DNA of 64,000 nt from Candidatus Spongiisociaceae bacterium (GTDB lineage Bacteria > Actinomycetota > Acidimicrobiia > Spongiisociales > Spongiisociaceae). Position numbers and translations under genes: made by a program. Numbering within the stretch: the first letter of the stretch is position 1; the number at the start of each line of letters is the position of its first letter. The DNA is taken from assembly GCA_965202665.1 (NCBI GenBank), contig OZ241841.1:480001-544000 (forward strand). Reading direction: 5' to 3'. Of the stretch, positions 1 to 39,586 are shown one piece after another. Below the pieces are notes generated by a model. That model was not told the origin of the DNA. It worked only from the letters and a program-made list of their open reading frames with translations, and made no database searches.

Positions 1-3000
1 CAGTATTTGGTGGGATCGTTGGCGTCGCATCCGACGGTTATTCCCCATTCGGCCATCAACTCGATGTTTGGTTCGTGGACGCTGCCGTCGTCGTCGCAGA
101 ACCGACCCTGGCAGGCCACCGGCGCGGGGGGCGCCACCGGAGCGACGGGTGCGGCGGGACCGGCCGGGGGCGGGGCCCCTCCTCCGGCGGGGGGCGGGGC
201 TCCTCCGCCTCCGCCTCCTCCACCACCTCCACCGGCGGCGGGGGGCGGCGCGGCCGGAGGCGGCGCGCTTCCACCCCCACCTCCTCCTCCTCCACCTCCT
301 CCTCCACCACCTCCTCCTCCACCACCTCCGGTGGGTGCGCTTGGTGTGCTGGTTGGCGGCGGCGGTGGGGGTGTGTATGTGTTGGCGGGAATGGTGAGGG
401 CGGCGGGGGTGATGGTAAATCCGTCGGCGGCGCCGGTTATGTTGATTCGTTCGGTTGGTTCTCTGGGTATTTGGTCGGTTTTGATGTTGATGGTGAAGGT
501 TCCGGAGCCGGATGATGCCGCGGGGCGGATATTTATGGTGGTGAGCTGGCTGGTGATTTGGTAGTCGTCGTTGGGGGTGGCGGTGCTGTCGGGGCCGGGG
601 ATGGTTATAGCCACGGAAGTGGCTTCAAACCGGGTGGTGGAGCCGTCCAGCCGGGCGGTGACGGTAACCCGACGGTTGGTTTCTCCTTCAGATAGGCTGG
701 CGGAGGGGCCGACAGTGAGGGTGATGCCGGTGGGTGGATCGTCGTTGTCTTTGATAGTAAATGCCACGGGTTCGATAGCGATCCCAGCGGAGGTTCCGGT
801 TATTTGTATGGTTTCATCCGGTTCGTCGATGCTGTCATCGGTGATGGGCAGGCTGAGGGTTCGGGTGGCGCTGTTTTGATTAGCGGAGATGGTCAGCGGG
901 GTGAGGGCGGGGGCGGTGTAGTCGTCTCCGGCGACGGCGGTTCCACCGAAGGCCAAGGTTACGGTGTGGGCGTTGGGAAGCGTTTCCGTGCCCGGGTAGG
1001 CGGCTTGCAGGGTTACGGACGTGCCGGTGTCCCCTTCGGTCGCTTCAGTTGTTGGGGTGAGGGTTAGCGTGACGGTCAGGTCGTCGTCGATGATGGTGAG
1101 GGTGTCTTGCGCGATAGTGAAACCGGCGAGCGTCCCACCGGCAACGGTTAGCGTTTCCGGCCCCTCGAAGGCGTCGTCGTTATATGTTCCGTCGGTTTTG
1201 AGCAGGAAAGTTGCGGTTCCGCTGGTTTCGTAGCCGGAAATTCGCACGTTGAAGGCATCCACCGTTTCATAGTCGGTTCCCTCAGTTGCTTCCCCAGTAG
1301 CCGTTTTGCCGACCACGATGGGTACGAAGGTAGCGGCGGAGCGGGTGGCGGTACCCTGGAAAGTGGCTACCACCCGCACCCGAATCTCTTGGTTTTCGTG
1401 GGCTTGGGTGAGGTGTTCCCCGCTGCTGTCGGCTCGGGTGCTGTGCAGGGAGAGGGTGACAGCGGTAGGAGGAGCGTCGTTATCGTTCAAAGCCAAAGCG
1501 ACGGCTACCGTGTGATAATCCACGTTGTTGATGGTTACTTGACTGCCGTTGATGACTATCCGTCTCGCCGGTTCATCGACGTTGTCGTCGTTCACCGTGA
1601 CTTGGATGTCGACGTAGCCGGTTTTAGTACCGGCGGGGATGGTGATGCCGGTGTCGTATCCGGAGGGAGTTGAGGCTGGTCGGGAGGGCCAAACTATCCG
1701 GTAGTCTTCCCGGTTCGTCCAAACGTTGTTGGAGTCCGCGGTGGCGGTACTGTCCTCGTCTATCTCCAAACCCACTACCACACCCCCGGTAGGGGCGTTC
1801 ACCGGCAGGGTAGCGGTAACCCGCACAGTGGTTGTTCCGCTGTTTTCCCCCAATGCGGACAGGGCGTTGTTGTTGGAGGGGTTGGTTAGGGCGAGGGTGA
1901 TGCCGCTGTCCGCAATGTTGATAGTCGTAGAATCGGAGGCGGCCGTTCCGGCGACGGTGGCCGAACCGCTGATTTTCACCGTTTCCGCAGTAGTTTCCGC
2001 GTCAGTATCAACCCGGGCGGTCAGCTGAAACGACCCCGTATGATGATGCTGCCCAGCGGGAATGCGGATAGTGAACGAGTTGCCCGTCTGGTCAGTGCAC
2101 ACATCTTCAGTCATCGACTGAGAACACGCTGTCGCCACCGTAGCCCCGTTGGTGTCCCCGGCCGCTATTGTTACCGTCACGTCAGTGTTGGTCGCCAGCG
2201 CGGAGGAGGTCGCTCCGGCGAACCCGGCGGTTACCGTTACGTTGTGGGCGCTGGCGCTTTCCGTCACCCTCCCCGGCGAGGCGGTTACCTCCAAAGCGGT
2301 GTCGCTGGCCCCGATAGTCAACGTGTCCGGGGTAATCCCCACGCCGCTGTTCACCGACGTCCCGGCGATCCTGAACGTTTCCGCCAGCTCGGTTATCGCA
2401 TCGTCTGTTATCGCTAATCCGGTTAGGTTGGTCCAGGCGCTTTGCGTTTGCCCGGCGGGGATGGACACCGTAACCGGGGTAGCGGGAGGAGTGAAATCGA
2501 TTCCCCCCGCCTCCGCCGACGCCGGCGACAAAGCCTCCGCAGTCACCCGCACCTGCAAAGCAGATCCTATATCGTTGCTGGTGGCGGTGGTGAACGCGGC
2601 CCGTACCCGCACCGCAACCGTTGAGCCCTCCGACAAAGTTTTCTGATTCCCGCTTTCCACACCGTCAGTATCCGCCGTCAGGGTCACTTCTAGATCATCG
2701 TCTGTGATAACCAGCGTCGTTCCACTAACCGCAAACCCCCCGGCGGTACCGTCGATGTCAATACTCTCCGCGTCCTCCGCGATGGCGTCCCCCGTAATCA
2801 GCAAACCAGACAGAGCAACCGCCGAACTACTAGTAGAACCAGCCGGGATGGTCACCGTCACCGCCGTACCCGGGGCGGTGAAATCCGTCGCTTCCGCGTT
2901 CTCTCCCGCCCCGAACGATAAGGTTACGTCGGTGGCTTGAGTGAGCGAGGAGCTGGACGCCCCGGCGAATGAGGCGGTAACGGTTACGGCTCCGGCGTTG

Positions 3001-6000
3001 GCGTCTCTTTCATCCACCGTGGACTGACTGAGGGCCAAAGTGATCGTTTCCAAAATCGGCAAATCAGCTACCGCGGGCAGATACCCGCCGGTAGCGGAAG
3101 CGGTGAAACGAATAGTCTCCGCCCCCTCCACCGTCCCATCATCCCGGGGAGTGAGCACAACATCCGCCGTCCCACTGGTTTGGCCGCTAGCGATGGTGAT
3201 AGTCGCAGTGCTACTCCCGCGGGTGTAATCCCCGGTCGCTCCCAAAGCGGCGGTTCCGCCCGCGGCCCCTACGTTTACCATCACCGTGGCGGACGATGAA
3301 GCGGCTGCGCCGAGGGTGGCTTTCACCCGCACCGTCTGCGCTCCCCCATCCTCGGTAATCCCCGACAAGGCCGGAGCGGCGCTTGTCGCTTGATGGAAGG
3401 ACAAAGTAACCGCCCGACCCGGATCGAAAACGCCCATCTGAGCGGACGCCACCTGACCTATAGAAGTAGAACCAGTCAGTTTCAAATACTCGATACCCTC
3501 AGTATCATCCCCATCGACGCGGGCCCGCAGCTGAAAAGAACCCGAACCGCTAACATCCCCGGCGGGGATACTGACCGTGAACTGATTGCCCGTCTGGTTA
3601 GTGCACACATCCGCTGTCATCGTCATCGTAGAACATACCGCGGTATGCACCGTCGCGCCGCTGGTGTCCCCCGACCCAACCGTTACCGTCACCGGAGTCG
3701 CCGCCGACAACACCGACGTAGCCCCCTGAAAACGGGCTGTCACCATTATCTGATGATCCGCCGTCCGCTCCACCACCTCCGCCGGAGACGCCGACAAAGA
3801 CACATCCACATCATCATCAACAATAGTCACCGTCTCCGCAACCACCGTCCCGCCTGTCGCGGTACCGGTGATGAGAAACGTCTCCGCTCCCTCCGCTATA
3901 GTATCATCCGCCACCGACAACCCGGTCAGATTCACCCAACCGCTCTGCAAGGCGGTTCCGACGGGCATAGTCACCGTCGCCGCCGCGCCCGGGGCGGTGA
4001 AATCAACACCCCCACCGGTCGCCGACACCGGAGAACCCTCCCCCGCAGTTACCTGAACCGTATACGCGGCGGTCAAGTCGTTGGTAGTAGCTGATGTGAA
4101 CCGGGCCCGCACCCGCACCGCCGCCTCCTCACCCTCCGGCAAAGTCTGCTGCACCCCAGAAGCGCTGTCCGTGTCCGCCGTTAAAGTAACCCCCAGATCA
4201 TCGTCGGTTATCGCCAGCTCCGTTCCGCTCACCACAAACCCATCCGCCGTCCCCCCAACATCGATCTTCTCCTCCCCCTCCGCAATCGAATCAGACGTAA
4301 TCAGCAAACCAGTCAAAGCAGTAGCGGAACTGGAGGTGGAAGAAGCCGGGATGCTCACCGTGATCGCCGTACCGGGAGCGGTGAAATCCGCCGCCTCCCC
4401 GTTCTCGCCCGCCCCGAACGACAACGTAACAACCGTCGCCCCCGTCAACGTCGAAGTAGACGCCCCCGCGAACGCCGCCGTCACCGACGCCGCCCCCGCG
4501 TTCGTTGCGCCCTCGCCTACCGATGACTGGCTGAGCGTCAACGTAATCTCTTCCATAATTTTCAAATCAACCGGAACAACCCTGAACCCAGTGGCGGAAC
4601 CGGTGAACTGAACCGTTTCCTCCCCCTCCGCCACCGTATCCGACAAAGGAGTGATCGTCACATCCGCCGTCCCGGAAGTCTCACCCGACGCAATCGTCAC
4701 ATCCACCGTCGCCGCCCCCCGGTCGTAGTCGCCGCTCGAACACGACCGGGACTGGCCGCTCCCCGTGCACGTCCCCAACGTCGCCGTACCCCCCGCCGCC
4801 CCCACATTCACGCTAATCGTCGTATCCGAACTCACCATCGCTCCCGCCGTAGCTTTCACCCGCACCGTCTCCGCCCCCCCACCCTCCGCTATCCCCCCCA
4901 AAGCCGCCTCCCCCGCCGTCGCCTCATGCAACGACAAATCCACCCGCGTCCCCACATCCACAATCGGCAAATCCACCGACTCCACCGCCACCGCCGCCCC
5001 GCCCACCGACGCCGACCCCGACAGCGTCAGATTCTCCCCCGACTCGCTCGTACTATCATCAGGAACCGTCACCATAAACGTGCCGCTCCCCGACGTCCCA
5101 CCCGCCGGAATAGACACCGTCATCTGATTATTAGTCAAACTCGTACAAGCATCCTGCCCGCTAGTTGTCGGACACGACGACCCCAACGAAGCCCCACCCG
5201 ACCCCGCCACCGACACCGTCACAGTTGTAGCAGTCGTCAGAATCGACGACGAACCCTTAAACCGGGCGGTCACCGTAACCTGCTGCGCCGTCGCCTGCTC
5301 ATCCACCGACAATGGAGACACCTCCAACTCAATATCAGCGTCATTATCATAAATCGTCAACGTGTCCGCCGTAGCGGATCCCAGCACCGACGACCCACCC
5401 ACCAAAAAGGTTTCCGGCCCCTCCACAATCGCATCATCGGTGATCGTCAACCCCGCCAACGTAGCCGAACCCGAAGCAGTAATACTCCGAGCCGGGAAAG
5501 AAATCGTATTCGCCGTGGACGGAGCATACGAAAAATCAGCCGTCGTCGCCTTCCCCGCCCCCGCCGGAGTCTCCGCCGCCGTCGACAGCGTCACTGCCGT
5601 CGCCGAAGACAACGCCGAAGACGTCGCGTTCCAAAAACTAGCCGACACCGACACCCCCGAACCGGAATCCCCCTCAGATATAATGTCTTGATTCCCCATA
5701 GCCTCACTATCGGTATCCACCGTCAAATCCACACGACTATTAGCATCCTTAACAGTTATCGGTGTCTTATACTGGGTCCAATCCGGAACGTCCACCCTAA
5801 GATAAAATATCTCGTCCGGCTCCACCTTCCCATCAGTTACCGTTGTTAAAGAAAGTCTAATAGGTGTGAAAGTTCCGGAAAGAGAGTTGGCGTTTATCGT
5901 TACAGACAAAGGATCATTCCAATGATCATGCTGATGATAGATATCGTGGGCACCACTTGTATCCGAGGTGCTTACCGTAGCTGTCCCGCTGTCAATTCTT

Positions 6001-6695
6001 ATTTGCTTATCCGAAATATTTTGGCTGTACGTCGAAGAAGTAGAAGCAGTGAACACACCGTTAGTCACCCCACCCACGATAGCCTTCGGCGTAGTAAAAT
6101 TGCCTTTACCATAGTTAATAAAACCCGAAGATTCACCTTCTTTTAGCTCCGACAATACTAAATAATTCGATGGTACAACTACCTTAACCGCCCGGTCCTG
6201 ATCGGTAATCGTCAAAGTAGCCGGAGCCACCCTATACCCAGAAGGGCCGGTGCCGGAGAAAATGATGGTCTCATGCTCTTCCGTAATCCTATCCGACCGC
6301 AAATCCATCGTAAAACTATTAGACGTAACACTCCTTTGATTCCTATGAATAGTTACATTCCAAGGCTCACGAGTACAGTAATCACCAGAATTGCAAACAT
6401 ATCTCGGAGGACGACCCGGATCAAACCTATTCACATTTATAGTCGCTCCTTGAGTGGCTGTACCGGATAACCTACTGATGCTAATCCGCAAATCGGAGGA
6501 CGGCGCCGAGGCCACCGACGCCTTCAACCGCAACACCTTCGAACCGCTGTCCTCCCCCACCGAAGTCACCGCGTTGCCCGAAGCATCAACCACACTGAAC
6601 GTAATAGTCGTCTGCGCCCCCACCACCGCAGGCGCGGCCGGCAACAGTGACAGGACCAAACCCGCCGCCAACGCCAACAGCCCCAGCCGTCGCAT
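1..6695 (-). CDS. Giant secreted Calx-beta-like repeat protein with C-terminal SLH-like domains, paralogue 1 (3' end runs off the window)
   Basis: Absent from the ORF track because no stop lies inside the window. Manual translation from ATG 6695 (GGAGG 7 nt upstream) gives MRRLGLLALAAGLVLSLLPAAPAVVGAQTTITFSVVD. The same frame at 65-2 reads IELMAEWGITVGCDANDPTKYC, the first SLH-like repeat of paralogues 4 and 5. DNA is colinear with paralogue 5. Confidence 0.88.
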   Translation of the reverse strand, partial: MRRLGLLALAAGLVLSLLPAAPAVVGAQTTITFSVVDASGNAVTSVGEDSGSKVLRLKASVASAPSSDLRISISRLSGTATQGATINVNRFDPGRPPRYVCNSGDYCTREPWNVTIHRNQRSVTSNSFTMDLRSDRITEEHETIIFSGTGPSGYRVAPATLTITDQDRAVKVVVPSNYLVLSELKEGESSGFINYGKGNFTTPKAIVGGVTNGVFTASTSSTYSQNISDKQIRIDSGTATVSTSDTSGAHDIYHQHDHWNDPLSVTINANSLSGTFTPIRLSLTTVTDGKVEPDEIFYLRVDVPDWTQYKTPITVKDANSRVDLTVDTDSEAMGNQDIISEGDSGSGVSVSASFWNATSSALSSATAVTLSTAAETPAGAGKATTADFSYAPSTANTISFPARSITASGSATLAGLTITDDAIVEGPETFLVGGSSVLGSATADTLTIYDNDADIELEVSPLSVDEQATAQQVTVTARFKGSSSILTTATTVTVSVAGSGGASLGSSCPTTSGQDACTSLTNNQMTVSIPAGGTSGSGTFMVTVPDDSTSESGENLTLSGSASVGGAAVAVESVDLPIVDVGTRVDLSLHEATAGEAALGGIAEGGGAETVRVKATAGAMVSSDTTISVNVGAAGGTATLGTCTGSGQSRSCSSGDYDRGAATVDVTIASGETSGTADVTITPLSDTVAEGEETVQFTGSATGFRVVPVDLKIMEEITLTLSQSSVGEGATNAGAASVTAAFAGASTSTLTGATVVTLSFGAGENGEAADFTAPGTAITVSIPASSTSSSATALTGLLITSDSIAEGEEKIDVGGTADGFVVSGTELAITDDDLGVTLTADTDSASGVQQTLPEGEEAAVRVRARFTSATTNDLTAAYTVQVTAGEGSPVSATGGGVDFTAPGAAATVTMPVGTALQSGWVNLTGLSVADDTIAEGAETFLITGTATGGTVVAETVTIVDDDVDVSLSASPAEVVERTADHQIMVTARFQGATSVLSAATPVTVTVGSGDTSGATVHTAVCSTMTMTADVCTNQTGNQFTVSIPAGDVSGSGSFQLRARVDGDDTEGIEYLKLTGSTSIGQVASAQMGVFDPGRAVTLSFHQATSAAPALSGITEDGGAQTVRVKATLGAAASSSATVMVNVGAAGGTAALGATGDYTRGSSTATITIASGQTSGTADVVLTPRDDGTVEGAETIRFTASATGGYLPAVADLPILETITLALSQSTVDERDANAGAVTVTASFAGASSSSLTQATDVTLSFGAGENAEATDFTAPGTAVTVTIPAGSTSSSAVALSGLLITGDAIAEDAESIDIDGTAGGFAVSGTTLVITDDDLEVTLTADTDGVESGNQKTLSEGSTVAVRVRAAFTTATSNDIGSALQVRVTAEALSPASAEAGGIDFTPPATPVTVSIPAGQTQSAWTNLTGLAITDDAITELAETFRIAGTSVNSGVGITPDTLTIGASDTALEVTASPGRVTESASAHNVTVTAGFAGATSSALATNTDVTVTIAAGDTNGATVATACSQSMTEDVCTDQTGNSFTIRIPAGQHHHTGSFQLTARVDTDAETTAETVKISGSATVAGTAASDSTTINIADSGITLALTNPSNNNALSALGENSGTTTVRVTATLPVNAPTGGVVVGLEIDEDSTATADSNNVWTNREDYRIVWPSRPASTPSGYDTGITIPAGTKTGYVDIQVTVNDDNVDEPARRIVINGSQVTINNVDYHTVAVALALNDNDAPPTAVTLSLHSTRADSSGEHLTQAHENQEIRVRVVATFQGTATRSAATFVPIVVGKTATGEATEGTDYETVDAFNVRISGYETSGTATFLLKTDGTYNDDAFEGPETLTVAGGTLAGFTIAQDTLTIIDDDLTVTLTLTPTTEATEGDTGTSVTLQAAYPGTETLPNAHTVTLAFGGTAVAGDDYTAPALTPLTISANQNSATRTLSLPITDDSIDEPDETIQITGTSAGIAIEPVAFTIKDNDDPPTGITLTVGPSASLSEGETNRRVTVTARLDGSTTRFEATSVAITIPGPDSTATPNDDYQITSQLTTINIRPAASSGSGTFTINIKTDQIPREPTERINITGAADGFTITPAALTIPANTYTPPPPPPTSTPSAPTGGGGGGGGGGGGGGGGGGGGSAPPPAAPPPAAGGGGGGGGGGGAPPPAGGGAPPPAGPAAPVAPVAPPAPVACQGRFCDDDGSVHEPNIELMAEWGITVGCDANDPTKY

Positions 6696-6746
6696 CACCC
6701 AACCTCCATCTTTCGCTTCCACCCGTATCAGGGCCGATTACGAAAA

Positions 6747-6774
6747 ACGCTACCCCCCCCCCCCAATTTGTCAA
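6747..6774 (-). promoter_or_regulatory. Sigma70/SigA-type promoter with G12 tract in the spacer (TTGACA-AATT-G12-TAGCGT, 16-nt spacer)
   Basis: Read directly: -35 at 6769-6774, C12 on + strand at 6753-6764, -10 at 6747-6752. Same element precedes all five paralogues. Confidence 0.85.
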
Positions 6775-6816
6775 ATCAAACCTCGATGAAGGCGTCTTCT
6801 ATGTTGCTTATGTTCC

Positions 6817-9800
6817 TCAGTTCCCGCCGGTGGCGGCGGGGGCGAGGTTGACGGCGCGGACGAAGAAAGAGGCCATCTGCGCTCTGGTTACCGGTTTGTT
6901 CGGGCAGTAGTTGAGGGGGGTGGTGGCGCAACCTCTGGTTACGCCTCTGCCGTACATTCCTTCAATAGCCCGGATGATGGCGGGGTCTAGTCCTGTTGCG
7001 TCTTGGAAGAGGTTTTGGGGTTCTTCCACGGATTGGAGGTGGGGAAAGGCGGCGATCATCATGATGGCCATATCGGCCCGGGTTACCACACCGCCGGGGT
7101 TGAAGTTTCCGTCGGTGAGCGCGAAGGCGTTTACGGAGACGCCCCATTCGGCGTAGGTGCGGTACCAAGCATCGGCTGGAACATCGCTGATTTCTATGTC
7201 CTCGGGGGGTTGGATGGTCCAGCGTTGGGAGACGGCGCGGTGGAGGAAGGCGGCCATTTGCCTGCGGGTGATTTGGGCTCCGGGGCAGTATTTGGTGGAG
7301 TCTTCGGTGTCGCAGCCGAGGGTGATTCTCCATCCGGCTATCCGTTCGATGTTGGCTTCATGGACGCTGCCGTCGTCATCGCAGAACCGGCCCTGGCAGA
7401 CCGGTTCGGGGGGAGGCGCAGGGGCCGGCGGGGGCGCGGCGGGCGGCGGGGTGCCGCCTCCTCCCCCTCCGCCTCCACCTCCCCCGCCGCCGCCTCCTCC
7501 TCCGCCGCCGCCTCCGCTACCCCCTCCGCCGCTGGGGCTGGGGGGCGGGGCGTCGTTGGCGGGGATGGCGAGGGTGAGGGTGGCGGGGCTGGGGGTTAAA
7601 CCGGCTGGGGCGGTGGCGGTGAGAACGATTCGTTCAGCTCGTTCTGGGGTGTTGTCGTTGATGATGGTTATGGTCAGGTTGGGGGCCTGGGTTTGCCCGG
7701 CGGGAATGACCGCGGTCAGGTTGCTTATCCGATAGTCGGAGTTACGGATGGCGTCTCCGCCGAGGCTGAAGGTAACGGCGGTGTCGGTGGAAAGCGGGTT
7801 CGATCCGGCGGGGAAGCGGGTAGCGATAGCGGCGGTGGCGCCGGTAGTTTCAGCCACGCTGGTTCGGGAGAGGCTGATTTGGACGCTGGTGGGCGGAGCG
7901 TCGTTGTCTTTGATGGTGAGCGTAGCCGGTTCGACGGTGAACCCGGCCAGCGTTCCGATTATCTGCAAGGTTTCGTCCCCTTCGGCGATGTTGTCGTCGG
8001 CCACGGCGGACAGGGTGATGGTTTGAGGGGTAGCGCTGTTTTGGTTAGCGGAGATGGTCATATCAGCAAGCGCGGAGGCGGTGAAGTCAGACGAAGAAGC
8101 GGTACCCCCGTAGGCCAGACTGACGGTCTGGGAAGCACCTAAAGTTTCCGTACCCGGATAGGCGGCCCGCAGGCTTAGAGTGATGTTGGCGTCCCCTTCG
8201 GTCACCTCGTCTGGCGTGACGGCAAGAATAACAGTCAGGTCATCGTCGAGGATGGACAGCGTGTCCTCCCCGATAGTGAAACCGGCGAGGGTCCCCCCGG
8301 CGACGGTCAACGTTTCCGGCCCCTCAAAAGCCGCATCATTGTATGTTCCATCAGTTCTAAGAACAAAACTGCTAACCCCGCTGGATTGGTAAGCGGGAAT
8401 GGCAACAGTAAAGTCGCCTACCGTTTCGTAATCCGTTCCCTCAGTGGCCTCCCCGGAAGGCTTTCCGACCACAATCGGCACGAAAGTAGCGGCGGAACGG
8501 GTGGCGGTTCCTTGAAAAGCGGCCCGTACCCGCACGGTGGTGCTTGTTCCGCCTTCGGGTACTTGGGTCAGCTCCGCTCCTACCTCGCCGCCGTCATCTT
8601 CATAAAGAGAGACATCGATGACGGTAGGAGGAGAATCGTTGTCGTTTAGGGTCAAACTGGCATCTACCGTCTGGTAGGTGTCGGCGCTGATAGTTACATC
8701 ACTGCCTTCGAAAAGAATGGTCTTCGCCGGTTCGGCAACGCTGTCGTCATTTACAACAATGGTGACATCAGCGAAACTGTTGGTGCTTCCTTGGGCGATG
8801 GTGATGCCGGTGGAGTATCCGCCGGGAGTTCCGGTCGGTTTGGAGGGCCAAGTCACACGGTAGTCCTCCCCATCCGCCCATACGTTGTTAGAGGCCGCAA
8901 CGGCGGTACTGCCCTCGGCTATTCTCAGGCCTACTACCACTCCACCCGAGGGGACGGTGACCCCGGTGGGCAGGGTAGCGGTCACCCGTATAGTGGAGGA
9001 TCCGCTGTTCTCATCCAACGCAGACACGGAACTCCCGGACTTAGCCAGAGTGAGGGTGATGGCGCTGTCTACTACGTTGATAGTGTCAGTATCTGACTCC
9101 GATTCTCCAGCGACGGTGGCGCTTCCGGTTATTTTCACCGTTTCAGTGGTGGCTTCCTGTGTTCCATCGTCCCGGGCGGTCAGCTTGAATGTTCCCGTAT
9201 GGCTGACTTCCCCGGCGGGGATGGTAATGGTAAACGAGTTGCCCGTCTGATCGGTGCAAACATCGTTCTGACCGATCGCGGAGCACGACGCCGCCATCGT
9301 CGCCCCGTTGGAATCCCCGGCCGCTACCGCCACCGTCACATCGGTGCCCGCCGCTAAAGCGGAGGAGGACGCTCCCGCGAACCCGGCGGTTACCGTAACA
9401 TCATGGGCGGCGCCGCTTTCATACACCGTTCCCGGCGACGCGGTGACTTCCAAAGCGGTGTCGCTAGCCCCGATAGTCAACGTGTCCGAAGTTACCGTCA
9501 CGCCGCTTCTCCCAACAACAGTACCGGTGATGGCAAACGTTTCCGCCGCCTCGGTCTCCGCGTCGTCTGCAACCGACAAGCCCGACAAGTTCACCCAAGG
9601 GCTTGCCAGACTGCTTTGCCCGGCGGGGATGGACACCGTGACCGGCGTAGCGGGAGCGGTGAAATCAACACCACCGCCCGCCGCTGACTGCGGCGACGAA
9701 ACCCCGGCGGTGACGCGCACCTGCAGAGCGGATCCTAAATCGTTGGAAGTAGCAGATGTGAACCTGGCCTGTACCCGCACCGCCGCCGTTGCCCCCTCCG

Positions 9801-12378
9801 ACAGGGTCTTCTGCTCCCCGACCATCACATCCGTATCCGCTTTTACAGTCACCCCCAAATCATCATCGGCGATAACCAACGATGTTCCGCTGACCGAAAA
9901 CCCCGTCGCGCTGCCCCCAATGTCGATGCTCTCCGCTCCCTCCGCGATCGTATCCCCGTCAATTAGCAAACCGGTCAACGCCGTAGCCGAGCTGGAGATG
10001 GAACCAGCCGGGATGCTCAACGTCAACGCCGTGCCCGGAGCGGTGAAATCCGCCGCCTCCGCGTTCTCACCCTCGCTGAACGACAACGTAACAGACGTGG
10101 CCCCGGTCAGCTCCGAAGTAGACGCCCCCGCAAACGCGGCCATCACCGACGCCGCACCCGCGTTTGTCGCTCCCTCGCCCACCGACGACGAGCTGAGCGT
10201 CAACTCTATCATTTCCGTGATTTTCAAATCCGCGGGAATAACCGTAAACCCGGCAGCGGAACCGGCGAACCGAATCGTTTCCTCCCCCTCCGCCACCGTG
10301 TCCGACAGGGGAGTAATGGTCACATCCGCGGTTGCCGACGTATCACCCGACGGGATCACCAAGTCCACCGTTTCCGCTCCCCGGTCGTAGTCGCCGCTCG
10401 AACAAGACCGGGACTGGCCGCTCCCCGAACACACCCCCACCGTCGCCGTCCCACCCATAGCACCCACGTCTACGACGACGGACGTCTGCGAAGTCACCGC
10501 GGTTTCGGCGGTGGCTTTCACCCGCACCCTCCGCGCCCCCCCACCCTCCGCTACCCCCGCCAACGCCGCCTCCCCGCTCGCCGCCTCATGCAAAGACAAA
10601 TCCACCCGCGTCCCCGCATCGATAATCGGCAAATCCACCGACTCCACCACCACATCCGACCCGCCCACCGACGCCGTACCCGACACCACCATCTTCTCCC
10701 CCGACTCACCCGTACCATCATCAAGAACCGTCACCGTAAACGTTTCGCTCGCCGACGTCCCACCCGCCGGAATGGAAATCGTGGTCGCATTACCCGTCAA
10801 ACTGGTACAAGCATCATCCCCGCCAGACACCGGACACGACGACGACAAAGCCGCCCCGCCCTCCCCCGCCACCGTCACCGCCACATCAGTAGCAGCTGTC
10901 AGAATAGACGACGACCCCTTAAACCGAGCCGTCACCCTAACCTGCTGCGCCCCCGCCTGCTCCTCCACCGACGACGGAGACACCTCCAACTCAACATCAG
11001 CGTCATCATCATAAATAGTCAACACAGACGACCGAGCGTCCCCCAACGCCGACGACCCACCCACCAAAAAAGTCTCCGGCCCCTCCACCACCGCATCATC
11101 GGTGATCGTCAACCCCGCCAACGTCGCCGTACCCGACGCAGTCACACTCCTAGCCGGAAAAGAAATCGTATTCGCCGTCGACGGAGCATACGAAAAATCA
11201 GCCGCCGCCGCCTTCCCCGCCCCCGCCGGAGTCTGCGCCTCCGCCGACAACGTCACCACCGTCGCCGAAGAAATCACCGACGACGTCGCATTCCAAAAAG
11301 CAGCCGCCACCGACACCCCCGAACCAGACGCCCCCTCCTCCAACACAGCCTGATTCCCATCTTCGCCACCATCGGTATCCACCGTAAAACCCACCCGATT
11401 CGCATCCTTGACAGTAAGCGGGGTTGGGAACGCCGTCCAACCCATCGGAACACCTTGATTTAGCCTAACGTAAAATATCTCATCCGGCTCCACCACCCTA
11501 TCTCTCATAACCCTCAGACCTATATAAGAGATACCACCACCCACACCACTGTGAGTAGACTGAGAAACAGTATTGGCGGGTATGGTCATCCGCTGAATCT
11601 CGTCCCAATTATGTAATTGGTAGACATCGGTGGGACTGCCTTTCGAATCTTTCTGTATAGCGGTCCCGCTATCGAAATACAATTGCATATCCGCCAAAGC
11701 TTGGCCGTATGTCGAAGAAGTAGACTGGGTGAACACACCATTCGTCACCCCACCCAATACAGCCGTCGGTGCAGGTTCATATATATGACCATCGGGTCTA
11801 TTCATAGATTCACCCTCTTCCTTCTCCGGCAAAACCTCATACGACATGTTCACCTTAATCGCCCGATCCTGATCGGTGATAGTCAAAGTAGTCCCAGTCA
11901 CCGTATACCCAGACTTAGAAGCGGTACCGGAGAAGGTGATAGTCTCATGCTCCTCCGTAATCCTATCCGCCCGCGTAAAAAGTTGCCAAGGGATTATATT
12001 ATAACCGATCGTCTGACCCACACCAATAGTAACATTAAAATTAGTAGATGAGTCAATACACGCATCACCACCTCGACACTCCATCCTAGTTTCCAGTAGG
12101 GTAACGGTCCTGTACACATTATTTACGGTAGCGGTCCCACCCCGAGTAACCGTCACCGTCACACTAGAAGTCACCGCCGAAGGCACCGACGCCCTCAAAA
12201 AAAGGTACTTACCCGAAGTAGCACTGTCCTCCCCCACCGAAGTGATCGCGGCTCTGGCGCTCGTCGCCTCCACCACGCTGAGCGTAATCGCCGTCTGCGC
12301 CCCCACCGCCGCCGGCGCAACCGGCAACACCGACCACACCAACCCCGCCGCCAACGACAACACCGCCAACCGCCGCAT
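6817..12378 (-). CDS. Giant secreted Calx-beta-like repeat/SLH protein, paralogue 2 (about 1853 aa, short form)
   Basis: ORF 6817..12429; start moved to ATG 12378 (MRRLAVLSLAAGLVWS, GGAGG upstream). Repeated D-x3-EG-x-ET...L-x-I-x-DDD motifs typical of Calx-beta domains. Poly-Pro/Gly linker. C-terminal repeats with TRRQMA/TRADMA/TRAQMA, SLH-like. Confidence 0.9.
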   Translation of the reverse strand: MRRLAVLSLAAGLVWSVLPVAPAAVGAQTAITLSVVEATSARAAITSVGEDSATSGKYLFLRASVPSAVTSSVTVTVTRGGTATVNNVYRTVTLLETRMECRGGDACIDSSTNFNVTIGVGQTIGYNIIPWQLFTRADRITEEHETITFSGTASKSGYTVTGTTLTITDQDRAIKVNMSYEVLPEKEEGESMNRPDGHIYEPAPTAVLGGVTNGVFTQSTSSTYGQALADMQLYFDSGTAIQKDSKGSPTDVYQLHNWDEIQRMTIPANTVSQSTHSGVGGGISYIGLRVMRDRVVEPDEIFYVRLNQGVPMGWTAFPTPLTVKDANRVGFTVDTDGGEDGNQAVLEEGASGSGVSVAAAFWNATSSVISSATVVTLSAEAQTPAGAGKAAAADFSYAPSTANTISFPARSVTASGTATLAGLTITDDAVVEGPETFLVGGSSALGDARSSVLTIYDDDADVELEVSPSSVEEQAGAQQVRVTARFKGSSSILTAATDVAVTVAGEGGAALSSSCPVSGGDDACTSLTGNATTISIPAGGTSASETFTVTVLDDGTGESGEKMVVSGTASVGGSDVVVESVDLPIIDAGTRVDLSLHEAASGEAALAGVAEGGGARRVRVKATAETAVTSQTSVVVDVGAMGGTATVGVCSGSGQSRSCSSGDYDRGAETVDLVIPSGDTSATADVTITPLSDTVAEGEETIRFAGSAAGFTVIPADLKITEMIELTLSSSSVGEGATNAGAASVMAAFAGASTSELTGATSVTLSFSEGENAEAADFTAPGTALTLSIPAGSISSSATALTGLLIDGDTIAEGAESIDIGGSATGFSVSGTSLVIADDDLGVTVKADTDVMVGEQKTLSEGATAAVRVQARFTSATSNDLGSALQVRVTAGVSSPQSAAGGGVDFTAPATPVTVSIPAGQSSLASPWVNLSGLSVADDAETEAAETFAITGTVVGRSGVTVTSDTLTIGASDTALEVTASPGTVYESGAAHDVTVTAGFAGASSSALAAGTDVTVAVAAGDSNGATMAASCSAIGQNDVCTDQTGNSFTITIPAGEVSHTGTFKLTARDDGTQEATTETVKITGSATVAGESESDTDTINVVDSAITLTLAKSGSSVSALDENSGSSTIRVTATLPTGVTVPSGGVVVGLRIAEGSTAVAASNNVWADGEDYRVTWPSKPTGTPGGYSTGITIAQGSTNSFADVTIVVNDDSVAEPAKTILFEGSDVTISADTYQTVDASLTLNDNDSPPTVIDVSLYEDDGGEVGAELTQVPEGGTSTTVRVRAAFQGTATRSAATFVPIVVGKPSGEATEGTDYETVGDFTVAIPAYQSSGVSSFVLRTDGTYNDAAFEGPETLTVAGGTLAGFTIGEDTLSILDDDLTVILAVTPDEVTEGDANITLSLRAAYPGTETLGASQTVSLAYGGTASSSDFTASALADMTISANQNSATPQTITLSAVADDNIAEGDETLQIIGTLAGFTVEPATLTIKDNDAPPTSVQISLSRTSVAETTGATAAIATRFPAGSNPLSTDTAVTFSLGGDAIRNSDYRISNLTAVIPAGQTQAPNLTITIINDNTPERAERIVLTATAPAGLTPSPATLTLAIPANDAPPPSPSGGGGSGGGGGGGGGGGGGGGGGGGGGTPPPAAPPPAPAPPPEPVCQGRFCDDDGSVHEANIERIAGWRITLGCDTEDSTKYCPGAQITRRQMAAFLHRAVSQRWTIQPPEDIEISDVPADAWYRTYAEWGVSVNAFALTDGNFNPGGVVTRADMAIMMIAAFPHLQSVEEPQNLFQDATGLDPAIIRAIEGMYGRGVTRGCATTPLNYCPNKPVTRAQMASFFVRAVNLAPAATGGN

Positions 12379-12429: not shown

Positions 12430-12456
12430 ACGCTACCCCCCCCCCCAATATGTCAA
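12430..12456 (-). promoter_or_regulatory. Promoter with G11 tract (TTGACA-TATT-G11-TAGCGT, 15-nt spacer)
   Basis: -35 at 12451-12456, C11 at 12436-12446, -10 at 12430-12435. Confidence 0.85.
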
Positions 12457-12597: not shown

Positions 12598-15500
12598 TTA
12601 TGAGCCGGCGGCGGCGGGGGCGAGGTTGACGGCGCGGACGAAGAAGGAGGCCATCTGCGCTCTGGTTACGGGTTTGTTGGGGCAGTAGTTGAGGGGGGTG
12701 GTGGTGCAGCCTCTGGTTACGCTTCTGCCGTACATTCCTTCGATGGCCCGTATTATCGTCGGGTCTAGTCCTGTTGCGTCTTGGAAGAGGTTTTGGGGTT
12801 CTTCTACGGGTTGGAGGTGGGGGAAGGCGGCGATCATCATGATGGCCATGTCGGCTCGGGTTACTACTCCGCCGGGGTTGAAGTTTCCGTCGGTGAGTTC
12901 GAAGGCGTTTATGGAGACGCCCCATTCGGCGTAGGTGCGGTACCAGGCGTCTTGGGATACGTCGTTGATTTCTATGTTTTGGGGGTTTTGGATGGTCCAG
13001 CGTTGGCTGACGGCGCGGTGGAGGAAGGCGGCCATTTGCCTGCGGGTGATTTGGGCTCCGGGGCAGTATTTGGTGGAGTCGGTGGCGTCGCAGCCGAGGG
13101 TGATTCTCCATCCGGCTATCCGTTCGATGTTGGCTTCATGGACGCTGCCGTCGTCGTCGCAGAATCGTCCTTGGCATGCCGGTTCGGGGGGAGGCGCGGG
13201 GGCGGGTGGGGGCGCGGTCGGCGGGGCGGCCGGGGGCGGTGGGGCTGGGGCGCCGCCGCCTCCTCCTCCGCCGCCACCTCCTCCGCCGCCACCTCCCCCG
13301 CCGCCACCTCCGCCTCCGGCGGGCGGGTTTCCTCCGCTGGGAGCGGGGGGTGGGGCGGGGGGTGGGGCGTCGTTGTCGGTGATGGTGAGGGTGAGGGTGG
13401 AGGGGTTGGGGGTTAATCCGGCTGGGGTGGCGGCGGTGAGGACGATTCGTTCGTTTGGTTCGTCGTCGGTGTCATGGAGGATGGTTATGGTGAGGTTGGG
13501 GGCTTGGGTTTGCCCGGCGGGGATGACCGCGGTCAGGCTGTTTATTCGGTAGTCGGAGTTGCGTTGGGCGTTTCCGCTGAGGGTGAAAGCGACGGCGGTG
13601 TCGGTGGGGAGCGTGTCGGACCCGGCGGGTAAGCGGGTGGCGATGGTAGCGGTAGCGCCGGTAGTTTCAGCCAGGTTGTTGGCGGAGAGGCTGATTTGGA
13701 TGCCGGCGGGCCGGTCGTCGTCGTCTTTGATAGTGAAGACGGCGGGGGTGACGGCGTATCCGGCGACCGTTCCGGTTATTTGCAAGGTTTCGTCTCCCTC
13801 GGCAATGCTGTCTTCGGTGGTTTGCAGGGCGAAGGTGGGGAGGGTGGCGCTGTTTTGGTTGGCGGGGATGGTCAGAGAGGTAAGAGAGGGGGCGGTGTAG
13901 TCAGCTCCGGCGACGGCGTCTCCTCCGAGGGCCAGGTTTACGGTTTGGGAAGTGGTGAGGGCCGCGCCCGGGTAGGCGGCTCGCAGGGTTGCGGCCGCGA
14001 CCGCGTCGCCTTCGTTCACCTCGTCTGGGGTGAGGGTGAGGGTGATGGTTTCGTCGTCGATGATGGTGAGGGTGTCTTGCCCGATAGTGAAACCGGCGAG
14101 GGTTCCGCCGGCGACGGTCAACGTTTCGTTCCCTTCAAGGTTTTCGTCGTCATATGTTCCGTCGGTTTTGAGGGTGAAAGTGCCGGTTCCGCTGGTTTGG
14201 TAGGGGTCGATCACCAAGTTGAAGGCGCTTACCGTTTGATAATCGGTTCCTGGTGTGGATTCCCCGGCGGCTTTACCGACCACAATCGGCACGGAAGTTG
14301 CGGCGGAGCGGGTGACGGTTCCCTGAAAAGAAGCCCGCACCCACACTACATCTTCGCCGCCTTCAGGTACTTGGGTAAGCGCCGCCCCGATGTCGCCTTC
14401 GTCGTCGCGGTGGAGGGCGAGGTCGATGTTGGCGGGCGGGTCGTCGTTGTCGCTGATAGTAAGCGCGGCGGCTACCGCGTGGTAGACGACGCTGCTGATG
14501 GTTACCGTGCTGCCGTTGACGGTTATGGTTTTGTCCGGTTCGTCTACGCTGTCGTCGTTTACCGTGATGGTAATATCGGCGGCGCCGCTGGTTTGCCCCT
14601 GCGCGATGGTGACGCCGGTGGCGTATCCATCAGGAGTGGAGGCTGGTTTGGGGGGCAGGCTGATCCGGTAGTCTTCTTGTTCCGTCCAGACGTTGTCGGA
14701 GTCCGCAGTAGCGCTACCGGCTATGTTCAGGCCTACAACCACCCCGCCGGAGGGGACGGTCGTACCGGTGGGGATGGTGGCGGTCACCCGTATGGTGGCA
14801 GACGCGCTGCTCTCGGACAACGTAGATATGGCGTTGTTGTTGGAGGCGTTGGTTAGGGAAAGGGTGATGCCGCTGTCTACAACGTTGATAGTGTCGGAAT
14901 CCGATTCTGATTCTCCGGCGACGGTGGCCGAGCCGGTTATTTTCACCTTTTCCACGCTTTCCGGCGTGTTGTCGTCCCGGGCGGTCAGCTGGAACGTTCC
15001 CGTATGGCTGGTTTGCCCGGCGGGGATGGTGACGGTAAACGAGTTGCCCGTCTGATCGGTGCAAACATCGTTCTGTCCGATCGCGGAGCACGACGCCGCT
15101 ACCGTCGCTGGGTCGGTGTCCCCGGCCGCTACCGCTACCGTCACCGCGGTGCCCGCCGACAAAGCCGATGAGGTCGCTCCGGCGAACCCGGCGGTCACCC
15201 TTATCGTATGAGCAGAACCGCTTTCATGCACCGTCCCCGGCGACGCGGCAACCTCCAAAGCGGTGTCGCTGGCCCCGATAGTCAACGTATCCGAAGTTAT
15301 CGTCACGTCGCTTCTCCCGGAAACGGTACCGGTGATGGCAAAGGTCTCCGCCGGTTCAGTCACAGTGTCGTCCGTAACCGCAAGTCCTGTCAGGTTCGCC
15401 CATGCGCTTTCCAGGCTGCTTGTACCGGTGGGAATGGACACCGTAACCGGCGTAGCGGGAGCGGTGAAATCTGTTCCCCCGCCCACCGCCGACTCCGGCG

Positions 15501-18500
15501 ACGAAACCCCGGCGGCGACGCGCACCTGCAGAGCGGAACCTAAATCATTGGAGGTAGCGGTGGTGAACTTGGCCCGTACCCGCACCGCGGGGGTGGTTCC
15601 TTCCGACAGGTTTTTTTGCTCCCCGTTCATTACGCTGTCCGTATCCGCCTCTACGGTCACTCCCAAATCGTCGTCTGCTATCTCCAGCTCGGTTCCGCTG
15701 ACTCGGAAGCCCCCCGCCGTGCCTCCGATGTCGATCTTCTCCGCTCCCTCGGCGATGGCATCCCCCGTGATCAGCAAACCGGTCAAGGCGGTAGCCGAGC
15801 TGGAGACGGAACCAGCGGGGATGCTCACCGTTAGCGCGGCGCCCGGGGCGGTGAAATCCGCCGCTTCCGCGTCCTCACCCGCCCCGAAAGTCAACGTGAC
15901 ATCCGTTGCTTGGGTGAGTAAGGAGCTAGACGCCCCAGCAAAGGAAGCCGTCACCGACGCCGCTCCCGCGTTTCCCGCTCCCTCACCCACCGAAGACCGG
16001 CTGACCGTCAACTGGATGGCTTCAGTGATGGACAGGTCGGCGGAGTCGGGCAGATACCCAGTAGCGGAGGCGGTGAAACGAATAGTTTCCGCCCCCTCGG
16101 CTGTTCCATCATCCCGGGGAGTGAGCACAACGTCGGCTGTTCCATCGGCTTGGTTGCTGTTGATGGTGATAGTCGCGGTGGCGCTCCCGCGGGTGTAATC
16201 CCCAGTGGATCCCAGGGTGGCGGTCCCGCCTGCGGCCCCCACGTTTACGGTCACTGTGGTAGCCGACGCGGCGTTTCCGCCGAGGGTGGCTTTCACCCGT
16301 ACCGTCTGCGCGCCCCCGTCCTCGGTAATACCCGACAGGGCAGGGTCGCCGCTGGAGGCCTGATGGAAGGACAAAGTAATCTGCCGGTCTGGGTCGTAAA
16401 CGCCCATCTGGGCGGGAGCTACCGAGCCTATGGAAGTAGCACCGGTGAGCTTCAAGTATTCGATATCCTCGGTGTTATCCTCGTCGACGCGGGCTCGCAT
16501 TTGGAAGGAACCCGAGGCGTTGACGTCCCCGGCGGGGATGCTGATCGTAAACTGATTGTTCGTTTGGTCGGTGCACACATCCGCCGATGACGAAAAAGGA
16601 CACGCCGCCGTCTGTACCCCTGCCCAGTTGGTGTCCGCTGGGGCGACTGTCACTGTTACCGGAGTCGCCGCCGACAACACCGAAGTGGCCCCCTGGAAAC
16701 GGGCGGTTACCGTAATCTGATGCGCCGCCGCTTGCTCCACCACCTCCGCCGGAGACGCCGACAAAGTCACGTCAACGTCATCATCAACGATAGTCACCGT
16801 GTCCGAAGCCACCGTCGCGCCGCCCGTTGCGGTACCGGTGACGAGAAACGTCTCCGACCCTTCCGCTACCGTATCATCCGCTACCGACAACCCGGTGAGA
16901 TCCGCCCAGCTGCTTTGCAAGCTGGTCGACCCGGTTGGTATAGACAACACCACCGCCGTACCGGGAGCTGTGAAATCAACACCCCCTCCAGTCGCCGACG
17001 CCGGCGACGAAGCCCCCGCGGTGACGCTTATTTGCAGAGCGGATCCTAAACCATTGGAAGTGGCGCTAGTGAAAGCGGCACGCACCCGCACCGCCGCCGC
17101 CTCACCCTCCGACAGGTTTCTCTGCACCCCGGACGCGCTGTCCGTGTCCACCGTCAAAGTAACCCCCATATCATCGTCGGTTATCGCCAACTCCGTTCCG
17201 CTCACCCCAAACCCCTCCGCCGTCCCCCCAACATCGATTTTCTCCTCCCCTTCCGCGATCGCATCCCCCGTAATAAGCAAACCAGACAAAGCGGTAGCGG
17301 AACTAGAAGTGGAAAAAGCCGGGATGCTCAACGTCAACGCCGGGGCGGTGAAATCCTGAGCCTCCGCGTTCTCGCCCGCCCCAAACGACAACGTAACAAC
17401 CGTCGCCCCGCTCAACTCTGAAGTAGTCGCCCCCGCGAAGGCGGCCGTCACCGTCGCCGCTCCCGCGTTCGTTGCGCCCTCGCCAACCGATGACTGGCTA
17501 AGCGTCAACGTAATCTCTTCCGTGATTTTCAAATCAACGGGAAACACCGTGAACCCGGAAGCGGAACCGGTAAATCGAACAGTTTCCTCCCCCTCCGCCA
17601 CCGTATCCGACAAAGGAGTGATCGTCACATCCGCCGTCCCGGAAGTCTCACCCGACGCAATCGTCACATCCACCGTCTCCGCCCCCCGATCATAATCACC
17701 GCTCGCGCAAGACCGGGACTGACCGCTCCCCGAGCACGTCCCCAAAGTCGCCGTCCCCCCCGCCGCCCCCACGTTCACGCTAATGGTCGTGTCCGAGGTC
17801 ACCGCCGCCCCCGCAGTAGCCTTCACCCGCACCGTCTCCGCCCCTCCATCCTCCGCTATCCCAGCCAACGCCGCCTCCCCGCTCGTCGCCTCATGCAACG
17901 ACAAATCCACCCGCGTCCCCGCGTCGATAATCGGCAAATCCGCCGACTCCACCGCCACCGCTGTCCCACCCACCGACGCCGCCCCCGACACCGTCAACTT
18001 CTCCCCCGTCTCGCTCGTACTATCATCAGAAACCGTCACCATAAACGTGTCGCTCCCCGACGTCGCACCCGCCGGAATAGACACCGTCATCTGATTATTA
18101 GTCAAACTAGTACAAGCATCGTTCGTATTCGCCGGACACCCCAAAGAAGCCCCGCCCGCCCCCGCCACCGTCACCGCCACGTCAGTAGCCGACGTCAAAA
18201 CCGACGACGAACCCTTAAACCGAGCCGTCACCGTAACCTCCTGCGACCCCGCCTGCTCAGACACCGCCAACGGAGACACCTCCAACTCAATATCAGCATC
18301 GTTGTCATAAATCGTCAACGTGTCCGCCGTAGCGGATCCCAGCGCCGACGACCCACCCACCAGAAAAGTTTCCGGCCCCTCCACTATCGCGTCGTCGGTG
18401 ATCGTCAACCCCGCCAACGTAGCCGTATCCGAAGGAGTGACGCTTCTAGCCGGGAAAGAAATCGTATTCGCCGTGGACGGAGCATACGTGAAATCAGCCG

Positions 18501-19724: not shown

Positions 19725-19752
19725 ACGCTACCCCCCCCCCCCAATTTGTCAA
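19725..19752 (-). promoter_or_regulatory. Promoter with G12 tract (TTGACA-AATT-G12-TAGCGT, 16-nt spacer)
   Basis: -35 at 19747-19752, C12 at 19731-19742, -10 at 19725-19730. Confidence 0.85.
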
Positions 19753-27040: not shown

Positions 27041-27067
27041 ACGCTACCCCCCCCCCCAATTTGTCAA
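27041..27067 (-). promoter_or_regulatory. Promoter with G11 tract (TTGACA-AATT-G11-TAGCGT, 15-nt spacer)
   Basis: -35 at 27062-27067, C11 at 27047-27057, -10 at 27041-27046. Confidence 0.85.
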
Positions 27068-34303: not shown

Positions 34304-34331
34304 ACGCTACCCCCCCCCCCCAATTTGTCAA
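34304..34331 (-). promoter_or_regulatory. Promoter with G12 tract (TTGACA-AATT-G12-TAGCGT, 16-nt spacer)
   Basis: -35 at 34326-34331, C12 at 34310-34321, -10 at 34304-34309. Confidence 0.85.
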
Positions 34332-39509: not shown

Positions 39510-39586
39510 TGGTGGAGCTGAGGGGATTTGAACCCCTGGCCTCCTCGTTGCGAACGAGGCGCTCTGCCGAACTGAGCTACAGCCCC
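39510..39586 (-). tRNA. tRNA-Ala(CGC)
   Basis: GGGGCTGTAGCTCAGTTCGGCAGAGCGCCTCGTT-CGC-AACGAGGAGGCCAGGGGTTCAAATCCCCTCAGCTCCACCA. G3:U70 Ala identity pair; CCA encoded. Confidence 0.97.

Follow-up and report, generated by a model that had tools for sequence, protein, structure and literature searches.

Re-pairing of tip modules among paralogous, predicted surface proteins in a Candidatus Spongiisociaceae genome

The paralogue family and the mosaic tip of p1

The DNA considered here is a window of 64,000 nucleotides (nt) from contig OZ241841.1 of Candidatus Spongiisociaceae bacterium (assembly GCA_965202665.1), and the subject is the tip-coding region of p1, the long gene at its left edge. The window is positions 480001-544000 of the genome under study (G000), whose 2.77 Mb contig is a closed circle, its end overlapping its start inside the gene r1. 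The first 34 kb of the window hold five long genes, p1-p5, all on the minus strand and in one orientation. With q1-q3 (1.014-1.036 Mb), r1, s1, and t1 they make up 11 close paralogues of 1841-2391 amino acids (aa), all of which keep an open reading frame through the tip. The product of p1 begins with a predicted signal peptide, followed by tip modules 1-3, about 13 more repeat units, a Pro/Gly linker, and a C-terminal region resembling the SLH region of p2-p5. In those four proteins the SLH match (PF00395) scores 29-32 bits in Pfam against a cut-off of 20.8, and surface display of the family is predicted from these matches and the signal-peptide-like starts.

An earlier note, made from the sequence alone, had described the p1 tip as a chimera of a p5-type first module and a second module nearly identical to that of p3. 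The near identity is borne out: 5700-6220 of p1 differs from p3 (18658-19178) at 16 of 521 nt, without gaps, and p5 is indeed diverged from p1 in module 2, with 55% identity against 97% for p1 and p3. The quoted peptides were located at 6413-6252 in p1 and 33964-33803 in p5, both on the minus strand. Module 1 of p1 is of p5 rather than p3 type, as claimed (87% against 67% identity), but the closest module genome-wide is that of q2, outside the window and 0.5 Mb from p1. Similarly, the claim that the rest of p1 follows p5 is correct from about 5600 to 2200, where p5 is 89-95% identical, but not from 1500 to 1, where p4 is closer (87/86/77% in successive windows, against 83/84/72% for p5). In many windows r1 or q2 matches p1 as well as or better than p5 does; the p5-type partner of p1 is a class, comprising p5, q2, and r1. 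Identity to p3 in the stalk is 69-89%. The first stalk segment of p1 is 93-94% identical to p5, q2, and r1 and 88% to p3, and farther down the corresponding values are 89-94% and 73-79%.

The note placed the switch at the ITDQDR junction. The 5' switch (in gene sense) does lie there, between 6222 and 6188, with ITDQDR at 6209-6192, but the p3-type tract has a second, 3' end, within or just past a 44-nt run identical in p1 and p3. In the triplet p1/q2/p3, p1 is of p3 type at 153 of 156 informative sites in 6188-5727 and at 285 of 1415 outside; none of 5000 permutations, in which sites are treated as independent, reached the tract score (best 19 against 150). With p5 as the other parent the tract spans 6211-5602, and with r1 6188-5604. 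The two-ended tract thus describes a patch that replaced module 2 alone between two crossovers, not a single switch. A single crossover between tandem genes is ruled out, since module 1 and the stalk of p1 are both of type A. Convergence or strong constraint on module 2 is ruled out as well: the synonymous distance (dS) between p1 and p3 is 0.057 there and 0.41 and 0.55 on either side. The ratio of nonsynonymous to synonymous distance (dN/dS) in module 2 is 0.42, a simple pairwise count, like all such ratios below, on recombined and gappy sequences. Because dS between type-A stalks is 0.18-0.28, the event in p1 is recent but not fresh.

The stretch is present in 15 public runs from six studies, labeled as sponge or marine metagenomes or with coded organism names. 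A peptidase encoded in the window finds its best named match, at 79%, in a Candidatus Spongiisociaceae metagenome-assembled genome, with Acidimicrobiia next at 45-51%, and the organism is probably a sponge-associated member of the Acidimicrobiia. Read-side evidence comes from contigs of such runs, which break at the shared linkers. Run X1 covers 5698-6053 and 6202-6463 without any difference, at depths of 72 and 70, and carries only p1 alleles (12 of 12 diagnostic sites); run X12 carries p3 alleles at 11 of the 12. Both alleles therefore exist outside this assembly. In run X10, a 202-nt contig joins p1 module-2 alleles to a tail of 10 nt that is unique, across the 11 genes, to p1 module 1; these 10 nt beyond the linker are fewer than the 31 letters taken as the criterion for a bridge, and X10 may be the source sample. 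A 414-nt contig of the same run, over the 3' junction, has 21 differences from p3, equal to the count for p1. Gaps in read cover (6098-6154 in X12, p3 module 1 in X10) were not used as evidence. A mixed allele in run X14, with 4 p3-type and 8 p1-type sites, was not counted as a third allele, as it may represent two collapsed copies (depth 581 against about 330).

Table 1. Positions of the p1 tip features, the paralogues in the window, and the poly-G elements
Feature	Position	Strand	Remarks
p1 module 1, type A	6204..6614	-	90% identity to q2, 87% to p5 and r1, 67% to p3; CxxGDxC motif
5' crossover zone (module 1/2 linker)	6184..6221	-	38 nt identical in p1 and p3; codes ATLTITDQDRAV
p1 module 2, type Z	5745..6203	-	97% identity to p3, 75% to q3, 55-63% to p5, r1, and q2
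Minimal p3-type tract in p1	5727..6188	-	outer limits about 5600-6221
3' crossover zone, start of module 3	5689..5732	-	44 nt identical in p1 and p3; codes VDLTVDTDSEAMGN
p1 module 3, conserved repeat unit	5343..5744	-	82-91% identity to nine paralogues, 62% to p4
p3 module 2, type Z	18703..19161	-	partner and likely donor type of p1 module 2
p1	1..6695, continuing 480 nt left of the window	-	2391 aa from MRRL
p1 G12 run between TTGACA and TAGCGT	6753..6764	-	spacer 16 nt
p2	6817..12378	-	module 1 94% identical to s1, module 2 only 63%; G11 promoter run 12436-12446
p3	12598..19668	-	module 1 and stalk in common with q3; G12 promoter run 19731-19742
p4	19835..26983	-	module 2 most divergent, 40-46% to all others; G11 promoter run 27047-27057
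p5	27107..34246	-	type-A module 1; module 2 84% identical to r1; G12 promoter run 34310-34321
Second poly-G family	G000:C1:1460534, 1466368, 1579495, 1583563, 1587580, 1947357, 1951209, 2094042, 2270995		nine proteins

Other members of the family differ in length. The genes p2, s1, and t1 do not have about 450 stalk codons that are present in the other eight, which looks like the loss of whole repeat units. Three further paralogues of about 4,500 aa (L069-L071; G000:C1:2217391, 766738, 2454427) have several tandem tip-like units and the same type of poly-G promoter. The sole Rfam match in the window is one tRNA, at 39513-39586.

Re-pairing of modules across the family

The proposal in the earlier note that tip modules are shuffled by recombination at conserved framework sequence extends well beyond p1. 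The trees of modules 1 and 2 are not congruent but reject each other: in approximately unbiased (AU) tests on G000, with gappy codon columns dropped, module-1 data reject the module-2 tree (p 3.9e-45) and module-2 data reject the module-1 tree (p 6.2e-7). The trees of module 1 and the first stalk segment are nearly alike (deltaL 12 and 23, though with AU p values of 0.012 and 0.018), and the module-2 tree lies far from both (deltaL 278-529). Pairs of genes in G000 display the same pattern. Module 2 is the more similar in q1/t1 (87%, against 52% in module 1) and q2/s1 (79% against 62%); module 1 is the more similar in p2/s1 (94% against 63%) and p5/q2 (94% against 69%). In q1/q2, module 3 is 98% identical and includes 225 identical nt, and identical runs between paralogues reach 225-449 nt.

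Among 41 genomes searched, a tally that includes G039, six have matches to the family, five of them strong, and all six are assembled in 1-9 contigs. In two of these, both related genomes, the tips could be compared in the same manner, using 12 of 15 loci in G009 (L043-L045 dropped) and 18 of 20 in G001 (L047 and L065 dropped), the omitted loci having another tip layout or a broken frame. Identities in modules 1, 2, and 3 of G009 are 66/95/70% for L032/L034, 100/68/84% for L031/L032, 98/64/99% for L034/L035, and 60/86/83% for L038/L041; in G001 they are 97/54/85% for L058/L059. Cross-module trees are rejected by AU tests in both genomes. Taken with the identical 38- and 44-nt runs at the breakpoints of p1 and the p1 alleles in public runs, these results sustain recombination at conserved framework sequence, by which variable regions are re-paired between loci. 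A copying model painted 75 switches along the genes. Six of them lie no more than 15 codons from the module 1/2 junction (binomial p 4e-4) and another six no more than 25 codons from the 2/3 junction (p 5e-3), the windows having been picked after the data had been seen.

Searches outside the family gave little. No match to module-1 or module-2 DNA (E<1e-15, >150 nt) was found in the genome beyond the 11 tips, and a search of JGI metagenomes and GTDB contigs with the p1 tip confirmed no related locus. A protein search for relatives returned 12 matches of 29-47% identity, none of them named, and yielded no independent copy of the p1 pairing.

Tips and stalks differ in their patterns of substitution. 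In G000, 23 of 24 tip comparisons give dN/dS values of 0.42-1.56, and those in the stalk are 0.15-0.44. The remaining comparison, p5/r1 module 2, gives 3.66 (dN 0.226, dS 0.062), and none of 1000 bootstraps had pN<=pS. The GC content at third codon positions (GC3) in the tips is 0.41-0.57 for 21 of 22 values and 0.61 for one, and elsewhere in the genes it is 0.70-0.73.

The genome, which is 94% complete by markers, has no matches to reverse transcriptase (PF00078) or serine recombinase (PF00239) and two to tyrosine recombinase (PF00589; 223754 and 2680185), both far from the arrays. Homologous recombination is therefore the default engine by inference. The recA gene is duplicated (G000:C1:132525-133679 and 1276090-1277244): the copies are 95.7% identical over 1155 nt, the copied segment is confined to the gene, and the flanks are unrelated. 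Two full-length recA matches occur in G000 alone among the 41 genomes. There is one match to comEC, and there are three to dprA above the cut-off (G000:C1:224871, 908708, 2339806), one of which adjoins the tyrosine recombinase at 223754. Loss of mismatch repair as a cause is ruled out, NucS being present.

Predicted tip fold and candidate promoters

AlphaFold2 applied to 41 aligned tips gives an all-beta model with a predicted local distance difference test score (pLDDT) of 87.6. We read this model as a tip of three sandwiches separated at the ITDQD and TVKD motifs, and the breakpoints coincide with these predicted domain borders. Module 2 of p1 folds alone in AlphaFold2, with a pLDDT of 89.5 and a predicted template modeling score (pTM) of 0.85. 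In structural comparisons, modules 1 and 2 both matched CALX-CBD1 best (Z 9.3, root-mean-square deviation (rmsd) 3.2, 107 residues aligned, and Z 8.2, rmsd 3.6, 104 aligned), with Z-scores only about 1 above those of other immunoglobulin-like (Ig-like) folds. The modules are predicted Calx-beta-like sandwiches. Pfam finds only Calx-beta, SLH, and a weak MG2 match in the family; the whole-protein Calx-beta (PF03160) scores of p1-p3 are marginal (27.7-29.2 against a cut-off of 27), with the best stretches in the distal stalk. Atlas matches for the Calx-beta fold were below 0.9. A PDB search by sequence found no real relative, and Foldseek returned only generic Ig-like chains for the three-domain model, at a template modeling (TM) score of about 0.2, and no match at E<=0.001 for module 2. 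Four acidic residues at the module 1/2 linker, D108, E112, D138, and D140, are invariant in 41 of 41 tips. By analogy with Calx-beta domains, these residues may bind calcium and may be kept for that reason.

All 11 genes lie behind the sequence TTGACA-N4-G11-13-TAGCGT, a candidate promoter. The earlier note had not connected the chimera with these poly-G sequences. The putative -35/-10 spacers measure 15 nt in six genes, 16 nt in four, and 17 nt in r1 only. A sigma-70 scanner reported no promoter at 6600-6900. TAGCGT matches TATAAT at three of six positions, and TANNNT is one reading of actinobacterial -10 boxes. The motif occurs at 24 sites in the genome, and almost every one of them precedes a large protein whose start resembles a signal peptide. 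The lengths of G/C runs are bimodal, with 96, 1, 0, 24, 28, and 14 runs of lengths 8 to 13 (66 of length 11-13). Across the 41 genomes the motif is present in five, namely G000, G001, G004, G009, and G011, the last with one stray match. Runs shorter by one G were seen in public contigs; their locus is not assignable, and they likely derive from the G11 paralogues. In porA of Neisseria meningitidis, according to the matched text of PMC7864442, shortening of a 17-nt spacer abolishes transcription.

Several variants and further occurrences of these runs were noted. The G009 loci L031-L042 have a second run, of G10-12, inside the sequence that codes for the signal peptide, and 4 of 12 genes are out of frame; these frameshifts could be homopolymer errors, but the placement of the G runs could not. 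Most promoters of the same loci carry TTGATT in place of TTGACA. In G001, the promoter G runs of L055 and L065 reach 19 and 18, far above the usual 11-12. A second family of nine proteins, of 1180-1410 aa and with signal-peptide-like starts, lies behind the same poly-G promoter, with spacers of 15-17 nt (Table 1). The poly-G promoter at G000:C1:846195 is not followed by any called gene for a large secreted protein; by eye, the closest long frame resembles that of a DNA methyltransferase (DLIYLDPPF motif) and might encode a phase-variable methylase. About 11 runs of G11-13 without TTGACA stand in repeated contexts at G000:C1:1215890-1232124 and mark a candidate switchable gene set.

Origin of the exchange and related systems

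Recombination is almost certainly the origin of the p1 tip. It is likely that p1 is a type-A gene into which a p3-type second tip domain was copied by gene conversion from a p3-like paralogue. The direction from p3 type to p1 seems the likelier one because the nearest relative of the Z module is that of q3, which shares the p3 backbone. RecA-type strand exchange would start in the 30-50 nt of near-identical inter-domain linkers, since the domain bodies, at 55-65% identity, are probably too divergent to pair, and whole folded domains would thereby move in frame with the fold kept. Each gene would be adjusted as its G run slips, r1 alone having a 17-nt spacer in this assembly, and the wall-anchored rods of a population would then differ in the module-1/module-2 pairs shown at their tips. 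The likely purpose would be to vary a binding or recognition surface toward phages or sponge cells. The pace looks evolutionary, unlike within-generation cassette switching, because 16 differences have already accumulated between the two Z copies. The whole chain, conversion at the linkers together with a phase-variable surface repertoire, is in our judgment reasonably probable.

Several observations weigh against this chain. Values of dN/dS near 1 fit relaxed constraint too, and only 1 of 24 G000 tip comparisons is clearly above 1. The public contigs are short, and neither switching within a population nor G-run variation at one locus was seen in them; only one Z allele is seen in X1 and one in X12, a pattern equally compatible with exchange between strains. 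In G001, 8 of 18 genes keep one nearest neighbor through all three modules, so that much of the pattern in that genome is accounted for by module 2 diverging faster. The other 63 painted switches are spread along the genes, the stalks being mosaic too, and the clustering at the junctions is no sign of a dedicated system because any homology-driven breakpoint must sit in conserved DNA.

The data on re-pairing fit exchange within one genome and exchange between strains alike. Another strain may instead have supplied the Z module of p1 (or p3), through transformation followed by allelic exchange at the same inter-domain linkers. The genome does contain comEC and dprA, and the finding of p1 alleles in X1 and p3 alleles in X12 could mean that the 16 differences are standing allelic variation. 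We consider this origin unlikely, since the donor-type and recipient copies lie 13 kb apart in one genome, the pattern recurs within G009 and within G001, and the long identical runs between paralogues (225-449 nt) point to recent exchange within the family. Moreover, comEC and dprA are common genes, with matches in 10-11 of 14 control genomes, and are no proof of competence. It is quite unlikely that the mosaic tips are a neutral by-product of ectopic recombination in a multi-copy family, with the tips under relaxed constraint and no selection for new pairings. The mosaicism of whole genes and tip dN/dS values mostly near 1 agree with this reading, and the low GC3 of the tips fits weak selection with mutation bias. 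All 11 tips are nevertheless open in frame with the predicted fold kept, p5 and r1 differ in module 2 far more at nonsynonymous than at synonymous sites (dN 0.226 against dS 0.062), and none of the 11 genes has lost the poly-G spacer, which relatives retain too.

A dedicated enzyme, whether a shufflon-like site-specific recombinase or a diversity-generating retroelement, might be invoked for breakpoints that recur at the same linker. It is very unlikely here: the PF00589 matches are distant from the arrays, PF00239 and PF00078 have none, the linker DNA differs at synonymous sites between paralogues, and switch points occur all along the stalk as well. A retroelement is further opposed by the 7 of 16 p1/p3 differences without adenine in either copy. 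Finally, it is extremely improbable that p3 and p5-type reads were misassembled into the chimera, because the p1 alleles occur in public runs and a contig spans the junction. It is true that the genes are long repeats, that the contigs available as a test are short, and that X10 may itself be the source sample; but p1 module 2 differs from p3 at 16 sites, p1 module 1 is at least 10% from every paralogue, the two X10 contigs and the exact cover in X1 at similar depths speak for the assembled order, and the same pattern is seen in two other assemblies.

The best-known examples of surface proteins under gene conversion and phase variation come from pathogens that are exposed to antibodies. The Opa protein is a small barrel in the outer membrane, with variable loops, and vlsE, tprK, and pilS are systems in which silent cassettes supply an expression site, tprK using silent donor cassettes that the 11 genes described here do not have. 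The present family resembles opa of N. gonorrhoeae, for which the matched text of PMC13183285 describes 11 loci, variable regions shuffled by recombination, near-identical alleles from conversion, and repeat-driven phase variation; phase variation in the present case is suggested by sequence. The second G run of G009 recalls the coding repeat of opa. The differences from opa are that whole domains of about 150 aa vary at the tip of SLH-type rods of 1840-2390 aa, that the repeat in G000 lies in the promoter spacer, that the sequences are unrelated, and that the organism is an uncultured member of the Acidimicrobiia, likely a sponge symbiont. The tpr genes of Treponema pallidum, in the matched text of PMC3656149 and PMC7864442, likewise form a paralogous family for surface proteins; chimeras occur among them (tprGJ, tprGI), and their promoters contain poly-G tracts that control transcription through their length. 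The protein fold is unrelated. In tprL the tract leaves the -35/-10 spacing unchanged, whereas here it fills the spacer, as in N. meningitidis porA (matched text of PMC7864442). Homology to the Opa and Tpr families was not found: Pfam and the structural model show other domains, tandem beta-sandwiches. The movement of whole variable domains by recombination at conserved flanks (14-53 bp), giving combinatorial pairs, is described for Type I hsdS (DoMo) in the matched text of PMC3077401, but hsdS encodes cytoplasmic DNA-recognition proteins whose domains, in the same text, also shift between positions 1 and 2, while here no module-1 or module-2 DNA has a match (E<1e-15, >150 nt) outside the 11 tips.

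Three other classes of system were considered. A silent-cassette system, such as pilE with its expression site (matched text of PMC3077401), is ruled out, as none of the 11 copies is truncated, each has the promoter motif, and no match to module-1 or module-2 DNA (E<1e-15, >150 nt) lies outside the tips. For a shufflon or invertible cassette, no recombinase was found beside the cassettes, the two tyrosine recombinases being far off and no serine recombinase being found in a genome 94% complete by markers. A diversity-generating retroelement is likewise contradicted by the missing PF00078 and the seven adenine-free differences.

A strategy known from elsewhere is here carried by a new scaffold, in a lifestyle where it was not expected. 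By analogy, domain swapping would likely vary the cell surface much as in some pathogens, with the same layout placed on whole Calx-beta-like domains of 2,000-aa rods in a likely sponge symbiont, and in three complete genomes. Short-read metagenome-assembled genomes would hide such a family. A full-text literature search, with most subscription papers outside its scope, found no description of such a system. The matched text of PMC11706023 reports Calx-beta genes as enriched in sponge-symbiotic Acidimicrobiia, for other lineages (TK06 and UBA11606), and that of PMC12749355 presents sponge aggregation factors as polymorphic Calx-beta proteins. Neither matched text mentions domain swapping or phase variation in Calx-beta genes, and the term "phase variation" occurs 0 times in the main text of PMC11706023. 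A link between symbiont Calx-beta proteins and sponge aggregation factors is speculation. The 150-aa domains, the G runs, and the junctions offer a concrete handle on symbiont-host or symbiont-phage recognition.

A bolder and more doubtful possibility is that a sponge symbiont runs pathogen-style antigenic variation. In such a scheme giant Calx-beta rods, encoded across the genome as a library, would have their two tip domains recombined like cassettes under diversifying selection, and poly-G switches would expose one or a few at once. The tips would match or evade phage receptor-binding proteins or the polymorphic Calx-beta aggregation factors of the host, the second recA copy would help the exchange, and all this would take place although the sponge host has no adaptive immunity. 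Elsewhere in the genome, G000:C1:1773219-1783934 holds direct and inverted repeats of kilobase length with 97-99.6% identity.

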